From contig NC_135804.1 of the NCBI RefSeq assembly GCF_964213995.1, positions 49,786,001-49,850,000 on the forward strand: DNA of 64,000 nt, written 5' to 3'. Position 1 is the stretch's first letter, and each line of letters opens with the position of its first letter. Below, piece by piece: positions 5,351 to 45,939 of this stretch. Source of the stretch: Mustelus asterias (taxonomy: Eukaryota). A program made the translations under genes and the position numbers. Below the pieces are notes generated by a model. It did not search any database. It was not told where the DNA came from and saw only the letters and a program-made list of their open reading frames with translations.

Positions 5351-7265
5351 GGTGTGAGTTGGACCAGGGTAGTAGAGTTATGGATGAGGTCAAGTTTATG
5401 GAAATATTGGAACTACATAAAAATAATCTTAAAAGAGTCAGCACATCAGTACACCTCCAATGATACGTGGCAGAAGAAAACAAACAATTGAAAGTTGACA
5501 TAAACATTGTGAATATAGAGTTAAGAGGCTCAAAATATTTTATGGCTCATACTTTAAGTCAGAAGGACAGAACATTAACTTTTAATTCAGGCACAATGAC
5601 ATACCTTAAGTGCATAATAAGCTTGGGAAAGGTTGCAGAACACCAATTTATTTACCCTAAGATAAAGATCAACAAAACTGGTCTTTCTTTAAAATCAAGG
5701 CTAAAACTCAGGTTAACCAGCGAACTGCACTAATAACATGGAGGTAGTGAGTCAGCACACAGATAATCCTATTTTTAAAAAATCAACACAGTTTCTATCA
5801 CTTCCCATGAGTTTATTTAACTGTAGGAAATGCAAAGCATCTATGTTAGTGCTCATCTTTTTCTGACAGGGCTGAGAATGCAATAGGAACAGGCCTTATG
5901 TTCTCAAAATGCACAATTCACTAAATAATTCCAACTAATTTCTCATTCTAATCTTTAGTATTTTTAAGCTAAATTTCCCCTACTTTTCAATGTGCAGCAC
6001 AAATAGTGTGAAAACAAAGATCATACTGAATGAGATTAAAGCACATTAGATTGGAGCCTGAGACGATTAGAAGCTAGCCTTTATATAGAAACCAAGGAAC
6101 ATGAGTTGGCAATTTAGTCCCTAGAGTCTATTCCACCATTCAACGACATCACAGTTAATCTGTCCCCTAACTCCATATTCAAGCCCATCTTTGCTCCATA
6201 TCTCTTAATACCTTTTGTTAACACAAATCAATCAAATTGAGATTTAAAATTAACTGACCTGACAACAATTGTTGTTTGCGCAAGTTCCAAACTTCTACCC
6301 CTCTGTGCGTGAAGTGCTTCCTTACTCCACTCCTGAAAGGCAGACAATGTCCCTTTTCCAAGACCAATGGAACTAGTTTCTCCATCTATCCAATTTGATC
6401 CCTTAATATTTTAAACTTTGACTAAATAGGTCCTTAACTGTCCAAATTCCAGGGAATCAGGTAATGCTATCTTTGTGTAATCTCTCGTTGTATTTTAATC
6501 CTTGGAGCTCAGGTATCAATTTTGTTCATTTACACTGCACCCTTCAAAGCCAGTATACCACTTGCCACAGTCCCAGTCTAGCAGCTATGCCCTTTATATC
6601 CCAGTCAGCTCAGTCTGTGGTGATACTCGGTGTTGAACTTTTAAGTCCCCCACCCAGAGTACATTCTGCAGCCTTGCCACCCTCAGTGCTTCCTTTGTGG
6701 TGTTCAACATAGAGGAGTACTGATTCATCAGCTAACAGTACACGGTAATCAGCAGGAGATTTCCTTGCCCACGTTTGACCTGCTGTATGAGATTTCATGG
6801 GGTCCAGAGTCGATGTTCAGCACTCCCAGGACAACTCCCTCCCAACTATATACCACTGTGCTGCCACCTCGGCTGGGTCTGTCCTGCTGGTGACACAGGA
6901 CATACCTAGAAATGGTGATGATGGTGCATGATTTAGTGAGTATGACTATGTCAGGCTGTCGGTTAACTAGTCTGAGAGACAGATCTCTGTACCAAAATTG
7001 GGAGAGCTGTAGGGTGTTTCTCTGAGGAACAGTGGAACCTCTCCCTGTGCTTCCAGGCAAGGTATTTGTAAAACCATCCAGAGGTTGATTACCATTTCCG
7101 GTAAAGACAAAGGAACATAATGACTAGCTCAACTCAAAGACCATGGGTATAACTGCCAATAATAATTCCTAGGTCTCTGGTTGGAATATACATAGGAGGA
7201 GGTCAAAAGCCTGCTTGCTACCAGCCTGTGGTGTGTGTGTCTGTCTGTCAGTCCGTGTGTGTGCT

Positions 7266-7510
7266 GTGGCAGGAGTGAAACCATGATTACTTGGCAGGGG
7301 TGTGCCTCTCGGCCTTTTGGCTAAGACCATGCATCAGATCAAGCCCAAGATGGCGGCGCAAAGACTTTTCTTGTCAACTTGGATCTTGTATGTCTCTCTT
7401 GCACGGATCATGAATTGGATTCAATTTGAATTTGAATTGGTTTTTGGTGCAAGCAAGGAGATGGATTCAGGTCTGCCTGGTCCACTCTGTGCATTGGCTT
7501 TGCAACTTTA
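7266..7510 (+). mobile_element. U2 snRNA-derived element with U1-like head (SINEU-like), copy 1
   Basis: CTCGGCCTTTTGGCTAAGA matches the U2 5' stem-loop. Later GGTTTTTGG...GGAGATGGA...GTCCACTC follows the U2 Sm site and 3' domain. Upstream TGGCAGGAGTGAAACCATGATTAC-TTGGCAGGGG resembles the U1 5' end. The GTAGTA branch-pairing motif is absent. Confidence 0.65.
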
Positions 7511-8177
7511 AGAAACAGCAGCTGGAAGTTTGCCACACTGAGGTTGATACAGTAACTGAAGCAGGGCCCCTGCAAAATAGTCAGCTTTTACAGGAACACC
7601 TAAAACTCTCCCTTTGACTGAGGGAGTCAGTCAGCGAAAGGCCGCAGCTGGAAGAAGAACTGAAATCTCTCCACCAAACCACAGAATACCTGAACAAACG
7701 AATCAATTGTTTGCAGAAGTCAACTACTGGAATCAATCTGTATTGGCTACAATGTTCATCATCTATTCCCCACAATTCAAGGACTGTTCTGTATAACTTT
7801 AAAAAAATATTATGCACTATTGAACTCAATTCTGACTTCTCTGTATGAATACAGGTGTGTGTGCGTTATCCTTTCTCCTTAACCTTTCGGTAATTAATAA
7901 ATTTACTCCATCTTAACTCCAGAAAGCCTGGAATTAAATTGGCTCATTTTTAAACATAACTATTGGGTCTGGAAATGGTGTCCAAGGGAAAGGGAACCTT
8001 GTTAGATTAAACCTTTGTTGCTACTAGCAGAGGCTGGGTTGAATAAAGACACAGAGCCAGTCTTCCCTCTTCACCGAGGTTCATAATTTGGGGATATCCC
8101 AGCTGGACAGTGACAAATTGAGGGGTCTTGCCCAGATCAACAACTCTGGGGAACCTCACCCGGGGCTGGTTATAACA
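7511..8177 (+). mobile_element. LTR-like remnant hosting the U2-derived element
   Basis: AATAAA motifs and LTR-like end sequences (...GGTTCATAATTTGGGG, ...GGTTATAACA). No TSD identified. Confidence 0.4.
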
Positions 8178-11100
8178 AGACGGAATTCCAGAGATTAAAG
8201 TGAAGACAGTTGTGTTGCCAATGGTGGAGTGATTGAAATCAGAAATGTGCAAGATGACAATTGGAGGAATGCAGTAATTGAGAAGATTTCTAGGGCTGGA
8301 GGAAGATACAGAGATGGGGAAAGGGGCATGAAGCCATGGAGAGATTTGAAAACAGGTATGAGAATTTTTAAATTGAGATGCGATCTGACCAGAACCCAGT
8401 GAAGTTCAGCAAATATGGTGATGGGCAACCAGGACATGGTGTAAAGTTTAGATTTGGATGAACTCAAGGTTTTGTAGGGTGAAGATGGGAAGCTGACCAG
8501 GAGTGTATTGGAATAGTCAGAGCTGGGGGTAATAAAGGCATGGATGTGGATTTCAGCAGTAAATCAAATAAGATTAGGTTGATGAGGTTATCGAGGTGAA
8601 CACATTTCTGATATGCAGCAGGTAACATTTGAGATTGTTGAATCTGCAGCCACCTGCGAGGATTTCCTTACACACCTTAATATGCTCCGTCCCCCACTCA
8701 TTCACTTCTGAGGTGGAGCAGTCTAATGAATTTTTAAAAAGTTGTTATTTATTAATGTCACAAGTGGGCTTACATTAACACTGTAATGAAGTTATTATGA
8801 AAATCCCCTAGTTGCCACACTCCAGAGCCTTTTTGGGTACACTGAGGGAGAATTTAGCATGGGCAATGCACTTAACCAGCAAGTCATTTGGACTAATTAG
8901 CTCCCTTTCATTGACATGTTCGTTAAAAAAAATCCACTAATGGGTTCTCCATTGCTGTCTACCACAAGCCTACCTTCACAAGTCAATACACACTTTGGGA
9001 TTTGTATAATTCCATGCGTTATAAGATTGGCCTTACCAGCAATTTTGTAAATGGGGTCTGAGCCATTTTCTCACCACCATGATTAAACTGACTGGCCTGT
9101 AATTGCTGGGCTTATCTTTACACCCTTTTCTGTCCAGAAATCTTCCTTGGCTGGTTTAATAATAAGATTGCCAGTTCAATTCTTGTACATGAGTACAAAG
9201 GCTCAGAAGAGGACCCTTCCACCACCACCAAAGTAACATTTCACTTGGTACAAAATATTCCCCTCATAAACCAGCCTCTTCAAAGGAGAAAATTTAAAAA
9301 TGACATTTACTGGTATTACTTGATTGAGAATTTGTGTTAACAATACTGCCAAATTCAAAAACTTCAGTGCTACATTTTAGCTTATAAACTCAAGTTGAAA
9401 CTTATTTTTCTGCCTAGTTGTGCCTAAGATTTCAATAACACACACTTCTGCCAGGGCCCATTTAATTTGTGTGTGAACAGCTTTGTTTACTCAAGGAAAT
9501 CACAGTGCCTTTCCTTCACATGGAATTCATCCCACTACTCCACAGCAACACCCCCAGGCAACTGTCAAGAGCACTGACACCAAGGCTCACTCTTCTCAGT
9601 TTCTAAAAAGAAAGGCTTTTCTTGAGTCCGTGTTCTATATTTAAAAACCCAGCTGTTTTCATTTTGTTTTATTCGTACACTTTCTTCGTTGAATTGCTTA
9701 TTAAACTCCATTTCCCCTGCCACTAAAGACATACAGGTAATCTGCTCCCAGTCGCCTAATACCAGCCTTGAGGGACTCACGCTTCAATCAGCCTCTCTCT
9801 ACTTCTTTGTTTGAATCAGGAGCACACTGCAGGAAATCATAACCAAAATGGCCTGGTCAAAAAGCTCACTTCTTGCTCAGTCACATTGTACAATCACTGG
9901 ATACGGAACATTTTCTCTATGGTACAAGACTAAGTTGACGATAGCATTATATCACAGACTTTCCAATGAACTTTGAAAACTTTAGCTAAAGCAGAAGTAT
10001 TTCTGCTTTTGTATTCATCCTGAAATATAAAACTTGAATCCACACGAGGAACAATACTAGATAGAGTACAGGCAAAAGAAATGTGTGTGGGGCTATAGAT
10101 ATTCTATCACCATGTCCATCGTCAGCAGATACCCAATCTTCCAGTCAAAGCTCAATTTGCAGTTAATTGAATAACCATTTTACATAATTCACATATACTC
10201 CAACCCAAAATTAAATAAGACTAGTCTTTTTACTGTTTAACGATTATTTCTGTAATTATCTTTCTGCATCCATGAGTTATGAGCCAGTGGTAGTAAAATT
10301 TACAAAAACAGAAAATGCTGGAGAAACTCAGCAGGTCCGACAGCATTTGGGGAGAGAGAATAGAGCCAACATTTTGAGTCAGAGTAACCCTTCATCAGAG
10401 CTGAAGGCAAAGAAAATCAGACAAGATTTACAGTAAGTAAAAGTAATCTTGGAATCGAGGAAGTAAATGTGTTTTTAAAGAAATTATATGGAGTCAGAAC
10501 ATTAACTCTATTTCTCTCTCCACAGATGCTGCCAGATCTTCGGGGTTTTTGCAGCATTTTCTGTTTTTATTTCAGAATCCAAAGTATTTTGCTTTTATTA
10601 AGAGAGGAATCTGTTCTTTTGTCTTTGTTTATTCACAACATGAGGTGAAGTGATCAAGAACTTGCCCAATGCGTCAAGATTGCAAATCTCCAATACTCCA
10701 CGGTGCACTAACCAATATTTGTAGAGATTTATACAGTGTAAGAATAGAGGATCCTAGGAATATATCATGATTTTGCTGGGGAGCAGAAAATAAACAAATG
10801 GACACAAATAATAACATGTTGACTTATACATGATAAAACTTTTGCAGTTATTTTCCAAAGGCCAAACCTGATAATCTTGCCATATATCATGTTTAGTTGC
10901 TTCTATGCACAATTATGTCACAAAATACAGAAACAGCCAAACATGTAAAACCACAATTAGCTGAAAAAGATAGCTTATAATTTATAGTTCAAATATAATC
11001 CCCAATGATCAGCACTTTTAAAATAAGAAAAATATTCAAAATTATGCATTCACAAGCACTACTTTAGTGCAAAAATCTAATCCTATGGGCATCATAAAAC

Positions 11101-20064: not shown

Positions 20065-20399
20065 CACTTTTTGCTGTTAGTGAGCCAGGAAGGCATGTTG
20101 TCCCTTCATCACTCTCCCTCTCCTTGTACTTTCACCCTTCCTCTGCAACGAGAAAGAAAAACACAAATTTCAAACCACTTTTAACACAATACTTGTAACT
20201 GACAAGTCAGGTCGAATATTCTCCACAGCTTCCAGTTACAATAACTGGCTTTTATTTTGTAAAGATTCGACACTTACAAGAATATGATATTGAAAAGTTG
20301 ACTAGATGACTCGGTTCAATATGCAGGTTATAAGAGTGAGGGGAAGGTCTGATTAACGAATGAAACTCTCATTCCCCAGCCCCAGCTAAAGCTGTGACA

Positions 20400-20680
20400 G
20401 GCGAATCCCCGGGAGCCGGGCGGCCCCTTCCCGAAAAGCGCGGTCCCACCCCGGCACGGCCCTCACCTGACTCGGCACAGCAAGGCCGGCTGCTCCGGCT
20501 GTCCCGCTGAGGGCCGCTGCCAGGCGCAGCATTGCCAACCTCAGAGGCCGGGCCGCGGCGCTGCTCCTTCCCGGTCCGCACACTGCCAGCCCCTCCCCCT
20601 GAACTTTCCCTGACCTCACGCTCCCGGCGCGATTGGGTCACTTCCGCGCCCCAGACTGGGGTTGCCATGGCAATGTCAAT
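20400..20680 (-). promoter_or_regulatory. CpG-island promoter of PSKH1 with CCAAT, ETS and RFX X-box sites
   Basis: Sharp CpG enrichment. CCAATC (minus strand) at 20631-20636, CGGAAGTG (minus strand) at 20639-20646, and the near-palindromic X-box GTTGCCATGGCAAT at 20661-20674. Confidence 0.7.
20467..20620 (-). other. PSKH1: Probable non-coding exon 1 of PSKH1
   Basis: GC/CpG-rich block ending in a CAG|gtgagg donor at 20467/20466. The TSS position is inferred. Confidence 0.55.
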
Positions 20681-20927: not shown

Positions 20928-21400
20928 TACTTCGCTTGGCCTTTTGGCCTTATGGCAGCATGGTGGCACAGTGGTTAGCACTGCTGCCTCACAGCACCAG
21001 GGAGCCAGGGACCTGGGTTTGATTCCCAACTTGGGTGACTGTGCGGAGTCTGCACGTTCTCCCTCTGGCTGCGTGGATTTCCTCTCAGTGCCCCAATTTC
21101 CTCCCACAGTCTGAAATACATGCTGGTTAGGTGCAATGGCCATGCTAAATTCTCCCTCAGTGTATCCGAATAAGTGCCGGAGTGTGACAACTAGGGGATT
21201 TTCACAGTAACTTCATTGTAGTGTTAATGTAAGCCTACTTGTGACACTAATAAATAAACTTAAAAATCAAGGTGAAGCATCGGATCAAGCCCAGGATGGG
21301 GTCCAATGCCTTGTCTTGTTAGCTTGGAACTTGTTTGCTCCTCTCGTGGGGACCATGAATTGGATTCAATTTGAATTTGATTTTTTGGATGGAATAATTT
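20928..21400 (+). mobile_element. U2 snRNA-derived element, copy 2 (split by a HE1-like SINE)
   Basis: GGCCTTTTGGC before the insertion. After it, GCATCGGATCAAGCCCAGGATGG...CATGAATTGGATTCAATTTGAATTTGA matches copy 1 at 7330-7436. Confidence 0.65.
20954..21263 (+). mobile_element. HE1/V-SINE-like SINE (tail type B)
   Basis: Full head, core and tail as at 1051-1330. Confidence 0.8.
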
Positions 21401-22859
21401 TTTTTAAAAGATGGAACTTGTACATGGCAGATCTGCTGCCTTTATCCTTTAGGTGATATAGATCATGATTTGGAAGGTGCTGTTGAAGGAGCATATTGTT
21501 TCAGTGCATCTTGTAACTGGTACACATTGCTGCCACTAGGCATTGGTGGTGGCAGCTAATGACACTGGTGGAACGATTGAAATTTGGATGCCCAAGGTAC
21601 CAGATTTGCAGGAACACCCGTATCTGTGCACGGATATCTCAGAGGGTTTTGGGCTGGTGGATGTTACAGAGAAGAACCATTGGACGTTGCTTAACTGAAG
21701 CAATGTAGATCAACAAATTCAGGAGTGGTGGGTGAATGGAACTTAGTGCGAGTTAGGACATGGACTGCAGAGCTTTGGAGATTAGAACATGGGAAGTCCA
21801 CCAGGAATCCCACATTGGAATAGTTAAGTCGAGAGTAACAAGGGCATGAATAAAGGTTTCAGCAGGCCTGGTGAAAATAGGCAATTCTAATGATGGCTCA
21901 GATATATGGCTGGAAGCTCACCTTGGCATTAGATATGACATCAAGGCTGTGAACCATGAAGTTCAGCCTCAGACAGTTGCGAAGGACAGGAATGGAGTTG
22001 GTAACTAAAGAACAGAGTTTGCATTGGGTACTGAAATAATGGGTTCAGTCTTCCCAATGTTTAGTTAGGGGAAATTTCTGCTCATCCAGTACGAGATGGC
22101 AGACAAGCAGTCTGACAATTTACAGATAGTGGAAGGATCGTGAGAGGAGATAGTTAGAAATATCTGTCATCAGTGTGCAAGTGAAAACAGATACTGTATT
22201 CTCAGATGATGTATGAAGCATGTAGATGAGAAATGGCAGAGAGTCAAGGATGGATCATTGGGGGATGCCAGAGATAACGCTGTGGGAGAAGGTGATTCTC
22301 TGGCTGTGACTGGATACATAAGAATGGAACAAGGTGAGTGTAGGTTCACCCAGCTTAGTGACACATTGAAGGGTTGATGGAGGATGGTGTGATCAATATG
22401 AGGACAGTGGTGTAGTGGATTGGTAATGCAGAGAGCCACGCTAATTAATAGGGACCATGGCTGGAATTCTCTGGCTGTTCATGCCCTGTTGCTGCTGCAA
22501 GTGAGGACAGAGACTTTGGCGCTCAAACAAATCTCCATTCGCTGCAGTGGGACCAGAGAATCCCGCTAGCGTGAACAGCTGGAAAATTCCAGCCTATGAA
22601 ATAATTTAGTTGTGGTTAAAAAGCAATCTGATTTATTAATGACCTTTAGGGAAGAAAATCTGCTGTCTTTACCTGCTCTAGCCCACTTGTGACTCCAGAC
22701 CCCCTGGACCCATAGAAATGTTGTTGACTTTGAGTGCCCTCTGAAATTGCCTAGCAAGACACTTAGTTGTACCAAACTGCTACAGAAGATTTAAAAAGGA
22801 ATAAAACTAGACAGACCTCCTAGCATTGAACTCGGCAGTGGAAATGACAAGGGCACACC

Positions 22860-31654: not shown

Positions 31655-32096
31655 CTGCAATTTAAAAAGAAAGGAAAATCCTATCATTCCTTAGCAAAAT
31701 GAAATTTGAGTAAACATCACTATAAAACTTACTGGCTGTACCTATCTTCATTTCAAAAGGCATTAGGAACATAGGAACAAGAATAGGCCATTCAGCCCCT
31801 TGAGCCTGCTCTGCCATTCAATAAGATATGGCTGATTTGTGGCCTAACTCCATGTACCTGTCCTAGGCCCATATCCCTGGATACCCCTGCTCAATAAAAA
31901 AATGTCTATCCCAAACTTAAACCTAACAATTGAACCAGCATCCACCTCCACCATTCTGTGTGTAGAAGTGTTTTCTAACATCCCTCCTGAATGGCTTGGT
32001 CCTAATTTCTAAATTATGACCCCTGGCTCTAGAGCCATTGTAAGGAGTCTAACAACACTAGGTTAAAGTCCAACAGTTTTATTTGGTAGCAAACGC

Positions 32097-32131
32097 CACT
32101 AGCTTTCGGAGCGCTGCTCCTTCGTCAGATG
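32097..32131 (-). ncRNA. Minimal hammerhead ribozyme motif (sense to the CTRL-like pre-mRNA)
   Basis: CAU-CUGACGA-A-GGAGC(AGC)GCUCC-GAAA-GC-UA-GUG: both core boxes, stem II, palindromic AGCU stem III and a short stem I. Confidence 0.65.
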
Positions 32132-32175
32132 GAGTGGAAATCCACTCCATGATGAAGATGGAGAGATTTCCACTC

Positions 32176-32210
32176 CATCTGACGAAGGAGCAGCGCTCCG
32201 AAAGCTAGTG
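32176..32210 (+). ncRNA. Minimal hammerhead ribozyme motif
   Basis: CATCTGACGAAGGAGCAGCGCTCCGAAAGCTAGTG, the mirror copy of 32097-32131. Confidence 0.65.
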
Positions 32211-32434
32211 GCTTTTGCTATCAAATAAACCTGTTGGACTTTAACCTGGTGTTGTTAGACTCCTTATTGTGTTTACCCCAGTCCAACGCCGGCATCTCCA
32301 CAGCAAGAGCCATTGCCATTGAAAGTTATGTGATGTGCCAAATTTCCATTGGGAAGGGTAAACTAGCATGTTGGCCCAATTAAATTGAATTTTTGTCATT
32401 TTTGATTTTGTTTTCTCCAACAGTAGATTAATTT

Positions 32435-39904: not shown

Positions 39905-40072
39905 CTGCAAAAACATTTTTATTAATAGCAAAAAATATTTTCATTTATTTTCCTTTTATAAAAGAACTGAATGTCAGCATTTGTCTTTTTAACAAGGACT
40001 TGATTAACAAGATTGCATTTATATTTCTACTGAGTCTCCTGTGAGTTTGTGGAATGTGGCAGTATTGACTTA

Positions 40073-40338
40073 GTAAGAAGTCTCACAACACCAGGTTAAA
40101 GTCCAACAGGTTTATTTGGTAGCAAACGCCACTAGCTCTTGGAGCGCTGCTCCTTCGTCAGGTGAGTGGGGGATCTGTTCACAAATCTGTTTGTTAGCAG
40201 ATCTCCCACTCACCTGACGAAGGAGCAGCGCTCTGAAAGCTAGTGGCGTTTGCTACCAAATAAACCTGTTGGACTTTAACCTGGTGTTGTGAGACTTCTT
40301 ACTGTGTTTACCCCAGTCCAACGCCGGCATCTCCACAT
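40073..40338. mobile_element. Palindromic Penelope-derived element with hammerhead motifs; 13-bp TSD
   Basis: Same family as 32041. TSD CAGTATTGACTTA at 40060-40072 and 40339-40351. The plus-strand motif is at 40211-40245. The minus-strand arm has GAAA changed to AAGA. Confidence 0.8.
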
Positions 40339-40600
40339 CAGTATTGACTTACCCAGTGAACATTCTTCAAATTAAAAGCATTCTAGCTGTTCCACCAAAT
40401 CCAACTGAAGTTGCTAAAAACCAAGAATTATTTCAACTTGAACATATATTTTGTGTGAATGAAAGCGATTGCATCACATAAAACTAATGCACGTTTGGCA
40501 GTGAGACACCAAGGATTTCCTTCAATATAGGAATTAAAATAATTGTTAGTTAATATTTTCACATAAAAGATCAAATTGTTTTATTGGAGCTATCTCTTAC

Positions 40601-45189: not shown

Positions 45190-45487
45190 TCCTTCTGCAT
45201 TCAGTTCTGGATCCTGTACCTCAGCAGCAATATATCAACCTTAGAGGAGTCTTACGCTGATGGTAAATATGAGGGTATCCCAAAACTCAGAAGGGTAATT
45301 TGAAACACAGGCTCTTACTGGTATATACTTTTACTTTGATATAATATGAGAAAAGATATGCAAACCAGGAAGCAGCAGCATAGTCTTGTTAAGATCAATT
45401 CATAAAGAATATAACTTAAAAGAAAACACACAGCAAGAAATACACCACAACAGTGTATTTAATTACACTAATGGCTATATACGCACA

Positions 45488-45939
45488 GTAAGAAGTCTAA
45501 CAACATCAGGTTAAAGTCCAACAGGTTTATTTGGTAGCAAATGCCACTAGCTTTCGGAGCGCTGCTCTTTCGTCAGGTGGAGTGGGAGATCTGTTCACAA
45601 ACAGGGCATACAGAGACACAAACTCAATTTACAGAATAATGATTGGAATGTGAGTCTTTACAACTAATCAAGTCTTAAAGGTACAGACAATGTGAGTGGA
45701 GAGAGCATTAAGCACAGGTTAAAGAGATGTGTATTGTCTCCAGACAGGACAGCTAGTGAGATTTTGCAAGTCCAGGCAAGTTGTGGGGGTTACAGATAGT
45801 GTGACATGGACCCAAGATCCCGGTTGAGGCCGTCCTCATGTGTGCGGAACTTGGCTATCAGTTTCTGCTCAGCGATTCTGCGTTGTCGTGTGTCGTGAAG
45901 GCCGCCTTGAAGAACACTTACCCGAAGGTCAGAGGTCGA
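45488..45939 (-). mobile_element. Penelope-like retroelement 3' fragment (GIY-YIG C-terminus plus pLTR with hammerhead)
   Basis: Minus-strand translation STSDLRVSVLQGGLHDTRQRRIAEQKLIAKFRTHEDGLNRDLGSMSHYL* has the E...GLN motif of PLE endonucleases. It is followed by the same terminal sequence as the 32041 and 40073 arms. Confidence 0.8.

Follow-up and report, generated by a model that had tools for sequence, protein, structure and literature searches.

A dispersed U2 snRNA-derived, SINEU-like repeat family in a shark genome, likely mobilised by a Tx1-type LINE

The element at positions 7304-7514 of the window, by which we mean the whole stretch of 64,000 nucleotides of Mustelus asterias DNA that was analysed, is one copy of a dispersed repeat of about 220 nt, here termed family A, whose scattered copies number in the hundreds and likely in the thousands. 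We are fairly confident that family A is a non-coding retroposon derived from U2 snRNA, likely mobilised by a Tx1 (Keno-like) LINE, with master copies that likely sat in U2 genes at nt 38 and were likely transcribed from the U2 promoter. Judged from its sequence, family A is of the SINEU structural class: it combines a U2 head with a dispersed unit of common derived structure, a length below 500 bp, a poly-A-type tail and internal oligo-T runs.

The abundance of the family was assessed with positions 7300-7520 as a genome query, which returned 3663 first-look candidates; among the best 40 of these 3663, which were scored, the full-length members were 84-89% identical to the query. An 18-mer taken from a non-U2 segment has 752 exact matches genome-wide, compared with none for its reversed control, and is intact in 15 of 29 aligned family A copies (counted by eye). 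The copy estimate is based on about 15% of copies being expected to keep this 18-mer intact at 90% identity, and families A and B (described below) would jointly amount to roughly 1,500-5,000 copies. The first-pass annotation had proposed an amplified element instead of two independent U2 pseudogenes; the aligned copies and the 752 matches against 0 bear this out and rule out the pair of pseudogenes.

The family A majority sequence (220 nt, from 29 copies) was compared with the genome's own U2. Its nt 1-31 equal U2 nt 1-31 (31/31), a 24-nt non-U2 segment follows this head, and nt 55-198 align to U2 31-154 with gaps and insertions at 91/146 (62%), which confirms the collinearity with U2 that had been read from 7305-7510. 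Equally sound were the observations that the branch-pairing motif is replaced and that insertions are present, both being visible when the majority is aligned to the genome's own U2, where the branch-point motif is absent. Short duplications precede the Sm site, a G stands before its U run, a IIb-like stem and stem III are retained, and an end of about 22 nt takes the place of stem IV. The tail consists of an AATAAA-like word and then A/T runs; oligo-T runs occur twice, as T4 within the head and as T5 within the body. Since the body carries derived changes common to all copies, it was amplified from masters and not recopied from U2 each time. A working U2 variant gene was also considered for the window copy and ruled out: Rfam U2 matches 7301-7538 weakly, at 25.3 bits (E 0.5) against a gathering cut-off of 46, and neither the branch-point motif nor the Sm consensus nor stem IV remains. 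The true U2 genes of this genome score 178-190 bits, and other copies of the family score up to 46.3 bits (L024).

The copies are old and scattered. Among the first 30 pattern matches on C1, 24 reach the 3' end, 16 begin at most 8 nt from U2 +1, and the median copy is 90% identical to the majority. In the flanks of 60 loci from the family A search there is no recurrent target or common target repeat and no upstream sequence common to the loci, and at 4 of these 60 the neighbour within 30 nt, on the same strand, is a Tx1 fragment or a further member of A, B or C; two of the 60 proved to be family B, leaving 58 family A loci for the counts below. The first-pass annotation had suggested looking for target duplications and a tail. 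Duplications scoring at least 10 accompany 4 of 54 full-tailed family A copies, above a background of 0.9% of 648 mismatched pairs, and 50 of the 54 are without a clear duplication. The tail was found as an A/T-rich stretch in the family and is missing from the window copy.

Table 1. Annotated features of the two copies in the window and of their surroundings.
Feature	Position	Strand	Evidence
Host repeat 5' part, LTR-like	7008..7266	+	68-84% to other genomic copies from ~7006-7017 to ~7266
U1 snRNA piece 1, own U1 nt 10-30	7267..7287	+	20/21
U1 snRNA piece 2, own U1 nt 5-20	7287..7302	+	15/16, by eye
Family A copy, majority nt 4-214	7304..7514	+	191/210 to majority of 29 copies
U2 head, U2 nt 4-31, stem-loop I	7304..7331	+	U2 4-29 at 92%; majority 31/31
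Non-U2 24-nt segment, 5' arm of family hairpin	7332..7354	+	Gap in U2 alignment
Diverged U2 31-86: branch-point motif lost, hairpin 3' arm, stem-IIb-like hairpin	7355..7411	+	
Sm-site remnant, G replacing A before U run; short tandem duplications upstream	7439..7447	+	
U2 stem-loop III homologue	7457..7488	+	Kept in family A, lost in B and C
Host repeat 3' part	7511..8178	+	72-78% to 19 other copies, most ending ~8170-8181
Second copy, 5' piece, U2 head remnant	20932..20953	+	A majority 2-21, 17/17 aligned with gap
Younger unrelated repeat inside second copy, ~310 nt	20954..21266	+	Several window copies, D4/D6/D8/D13/D17
Second copy, 3' piece, family-B-type tail	21269..21410	+	B majority 143-280, 123/138

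The host of the window copy is an LTR-like repeat of about 1,170 bp (7008-8178) with TG...CA ends (by eye), whose 3' part has 469 genomic candidates. About a dozen host copies read straight across the insertion site, and these empty sites set the main limits of the insertion at 7267-7514. The insertion replaces 0-2 host bases and matches the host over 2 nt at its 5' junction (the start of U1 piece 1) and 4 nt at its 3' junction; the copy is without the last 6 nt of the family A majority and without an A-tail, and a search for a target duplication around it (L001) found none. The non-U2 segment that follows its head resembles reiterated U2-head motifs and also the 5' end of the Tx1 LINE described below: over nt 32-50 of the family A majority, the LINE matches at 12/19 and U2 at 6/19. 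At the junction of the host with a neighbouring repeat, a short inverted piece of the latter lies at 6989-7010 (by eye).

Two tandem U1 5'-end-like pieces had been reported directly upstream of the U2-like part, and both are real: the first scores 38 compared with a maximum of 22 over 2539 control windows, and the second was aligned by eye. No U1 piece precedes the insertion site in any of the 19 other host copies shown, so they are not part of the host LTR; with U1-free empty sites, an origin as host sequence is ruled out. The first-pass annotation had further asked whether the U1 head is constant, and it is not. Canonical U1 pieces occur at only 2 of 58 family A loci, L001 and L071, which rules out a constant U1 family head. 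More broadly, snRNA 5' extensions are found at 6 of the 58 loci, namely U1+U1 (the window copy), U6, U2, U2+U1 and, twice, a variant U1. In one case (L003) a full-length U6 copy (90.1 bits) is fused directly to a family A copy; in two others (L025, L077) family A bodies carry a variant U1 head of the B type but no U4 piece, their junctions differing. The U1 pieces of the window copy are a one-off 5' addition and not a family head, and piece 1 was likely added by a template jump. One-off U1 additions of the same kind are described for SINEU-2 in the available text of Kojima 2015 (PMC4494074).

The second copy that had been placed at 20928-21400 on account of common non-U2 insertions is present with those same segments. 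Two of its properties had been missed: it is split by a repeat of about 310 nt, which we take to be tRNA-SINE-like, and its tail is that of family B. It shares its core with family A without stem III, and is flanked by a decayed duplication of about 10 nt of its own host repeat, as judged with empty-site sequence from two other loci (L190, L202). A GC- and CpG-rich, promoter-like stretch lies at 20390-20680, just upstream of that host repeat. Elsewhere in the window, three copies of a near-perfect palindromic MITE-like repeat (32024-32305, 40057-40340 and 45472-45585) have arms of 100-114 nt that are 95-96% complementary, and a weak mir-3533 match in the Rfam search of the window falls within one of the three copies.

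Two sister families were recognised. A long common head was present in 2 of the 30 family A pattern matches, and a genome search with that head gave 1149 candidates, of which the best 40 of 1149 were scored. The resulting family B majority (30 copies, 280 nt) joins U1 1-61 at 80% and U4 23-48 at 26/26 to a family A core cut after the Sm site, and its head is 92% identical to the majority; a U4-derived segment is not reported in the literature searched. Family C consists of U2 1-39 and a B-like body, is found beside LINEs, and shows frequent duplications and tandem copies (by eye); an 18-mer from it has 2503 exact matches compared with 0 for the control, and its median identity is 96%. The cores match at 108/112 between A and B and at 79/100 between A and C. 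Going by identities of 90%, 92% and 96%, the three families differ in age and have exchanged heads, C being young. At two loci (L139, L011) the U1-derived hairpin of family B is expanded into a 40-bp tandem array upstream of the elements, and in family B heads (L113-L142) the pairing of U1 stem-loop I is kept through changes on both arms (by eye).

A long hairpin and the IIb-like stem are common to the families, with 90% of cells paired compared with 29-51% when the partners were slid. The rows for this analysis were 16/30 from the A search, 16/30 from B and 16/30 from C, the A rows being picked by an exact 5'-arm match. Double-sided changes separate A/B from C at pairs 8:54, 17:43 and 19:42, which amounts to about three covariation events in all; the number of double-change pairs did not exceed that of shuffles (228/500). 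Folds of single copies are weak for A (z 0.16, -1.67, -1.04), the value of 0.16 belonging to the window copy, where the hairpin has decayed, and strong for C (z -5.45).

A search with the zf-RVT domain gave 1389 candidates, of which the best 150 of 1389 were scored, and a full LINE copy was obtained. Its ORF1 encodes ZCCHC3-type domains plus a CCHC knuckle, and its ORF2 of 1144 aa contains an AP-endonuclease, a reverse transcriptase and zf-RVT, a domain set that we take to be Tx1-type. Its best protein matches are unnamed or amphibian proteins at 55-57%, the named ones being amphibian at 54-56%, and none is labelled Keno. At 3 of 18 long loci this LINE is followed by U2 from nt 38, with several more cases in an array on C21, and many copies are dispersed outside U2 genes. 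Keno and Utopia use the same U2 site, with downstream U2 starting at nt 39, according to section 6 of PMC4640811. The 5' end of the LINE aligns with family A nt 5-50 at 40/46, a match made up mostly of plain U2; the stretch beyond U2 contributes 12/19.

The true U2 genes of the genome lie in tandem arrays on C24. One of these (C24:44,815,000-44,935,500, L179) is an array of about 15 units of 8,035 bp, each with one U2 gene left intact and another interrupted by a Tx1 LINE (5' flank U2 13-58, 3' flank U2 38-191); a second C24 U2 array has a unit of 1.83 kb. On C21 (28,045,500-28,078,000; L182, L187, L197, L198) there is a U2-variant array with a unit of about 450 bp, about 90% identical to the main U2, which holds several Tx1 LINE insertions and one family C insertion at nt 38. 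That family C copy sits in a U2-variant gene: behind the array's native upstream flank come the U2 head, the body of C, an A-tail and finally U2 38-185. The upstream sequence of this array differs from that of the main array, and inspection by eye made out no clear promoter element there. In addition, the same duplication separates the LINE and tandem C copies at two loci (L181, L189).

Target sharing with the Tx1 LINE is therefore direct for family C, and for family A it consists of three junctions with U2 nt 38. A family A 3' end is joined to U2 nt 38 at 3 places compared with 0 for the control (1 under a stricter pattern). Two unlinked copies have the tail, then U2 38-53, then an A-run, identically in both, and the third runs into U2 38-125 at 95%. 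These are 3 of an estimated 1,500-5,000 copies; the same pattern test on family B tails gave 0 matches, and a family A copy lying within an intact, promoter-bearing U2 gene was not encountered. The simplest reading of the junctions would be read-through from a master at the LINE site in a U2 gene; the alternative would be direct insertion into U2 fragments at the same site. A 75% Tx1 fragment also adjoins one family A copy (L002). The intact LINE copies look younger than family A, and the actual partner may have been an older relative.

In the mechanism that we propose, Pol II would transcribe a master inside a U2 gene, beginning at U2 +1 under the snRNA promoter that lies upstream, which would account for copy heads beginning there. 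Among the sequencing runs listed for a family C stretch none was of RNA, which speaks neither for nor against transcription. The master RNA would be polyadenylated at the AATAAA-like tail, and read-through (3' transduction) would be the source of the U2 38+ pieces. A Tx1 protein would reverse-transcribe and insert the RNA, mostly away from U2 genes, and wherever the reverse transcriptase switched to U1, U2, U4 or U6 RNA, a one-off head and occasionally a new family would result. For the window copy, priming on the 4-nt match to the host and two template jumps onto U1 RNA could have produced the tandem U1 pieces. A bolder version, to which we give an even chance, is that the families form an independently born, long-lived superfamily (A old and full-bodied, B with U1 and U4, C young) that has no promoter of its own and survives by Keno-type homing into U2 nt 38, each such insertion providing a Pol II promoter together with a new U2 head. 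If true, this would explain the transcription of SINEU-type elements and add U4 as a SINE building block, and the conserved hairpin would be suggested as a signal for the LINE protein.

Other accounts of the same data were weighed. Family A could be a genuine SINE that was spread mainly by an L1, L2 or CR1-type LINE, the U2-site junctions being occasional side events. The scarcity of clear duplications, the absence of a target preference in A and the number of U2 junctions, three only, all suit this account; it is nevertheless improbable in our judgement, as by eye the tail of A is similar to the 3' end of Tx1 (in low-complexity sequence), sister family C has ties to the Tx1 LINE, and the snRNA 5' jumps and tandem stacking match the behaviour of Tx1-linked SINEU-2, as the available text of PMC4494074 describes it. 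A little harder still to believe, in our view, is that a single divergent gene for a U2-like small RNA, with a promoter of its own and a function in the cell, gave rise to the copies by retrocopying, with no self-renewing SINE lineage. Hairpins kept with double-sided changes between A/B and C (90% of cells paired) and the persistence of the IIb-like and III stems would be expected of such a gene, against which stand the loss of the branch-point motif, Sm consensus and stem IV, the three families of differing age (90%, 92%, 96%) with exchanged heads, the tails joined to U2 at the LINE site, and the lack of a common upstream flank in the 60 loci.

As for the polymerase, transcription of family A by Pol III is unlikely given the internal T runs, and we regard it as the least credible of these accounts. 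Words resembling box A and box B, as we assume their consensus to be, can be found by eye in the family A head; the spacing between them is just about 10 nt, and both internal T runs (T4 and T5) are expected Pol III terminators. The same argument from internal T runs was made for SINEU in the available text of PMC4494074.

Among known elements, SINEU-3 of crocodilians is the closest in layout: according to the available text of PMC4494074 it is, like family A, short and mostly U2 (5' 31-32 nt, a later U2 block and a short unique 3' end), with a poly-A-type tail, internal oligo-T and a link to Tx1. SINEU-3 has an internal U2 deletion of about 50 bp and targets Mariner-N4_AMi (same source), whereas family A has insertions and no such deletion, a diverged body (62% to U2), a new long hairpin and the U2 nt 38 junctions. 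A Mariner-type preference was not seen in family A, as the flanks of 60 loci gave no recurrent target, in an analysis without a Mariner sequence as query. Repeated addition of U1 or U2 heads is described for SINEU-1 and SINEU-2 of crocodilians, as here; their U1+U2 chimera is paralleled by family B, and the one-off U1 extensions by the window copy (PMC4494074, available text). Family B also has the 26/26 U4 piece (nt 23-48), where the available text of that paper reports U1 and U2 only, and a 26-nt SINEU-2 head string given there has only U1-conserved positions in common with B (by eye). Family A is set apart from SINEU-1, -2 and -3 by the missing SINEU-3 deletion and Mariner preference.

Keno (Tx1 clade) and Utopia resemble the candidate partner LINE in having an AP-endonuclease and the same U2 site (PMC4640811, available text). 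The family A element is itself non-coding, unlike these LINEs, and the partner LINE is also dispersed beyond U2 genes. Sharks are not named in the available text of PMC4640811 (0 occurrences). The U1 pieces of the window copy and the U6 head of L003 look like the U2/U6 processed pseudogenes and template-switch chimeras treated in the available text of PMC4494074; unlike these, the family A body was amplified from masters.

In Kojima 2015 (PMC4494074, available text), SINEU is described from crocodilians alone and the question of its transcription is left unanswered. No shark SINEU was met in the literature searched, and the available texts of PMC7245038, PMC5786205, PMC8010984 and PMC5499810 contain none, the last with 0 occurrences of snRNA; Repbase and Dfam lay outside that search, and a catalogued entry is possible. 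The origin is probably independent of crocodilian SINEU. What the analysis adds is family A, an old form with the full body, together with its junctions by read-through, and family B with its U4 piece.

Thousands of copies in a vertebrate lineage other than the crocodilians would demonstrate the repeated birth of snRNA-derived SINEs in genomes with active Tx1 LINEs. With the ORFs of a partner LINE in hand, a young family C copy inside a U2 gene, and read-through junctions that would mark old masters, the question of the promoter becomes directly testable.
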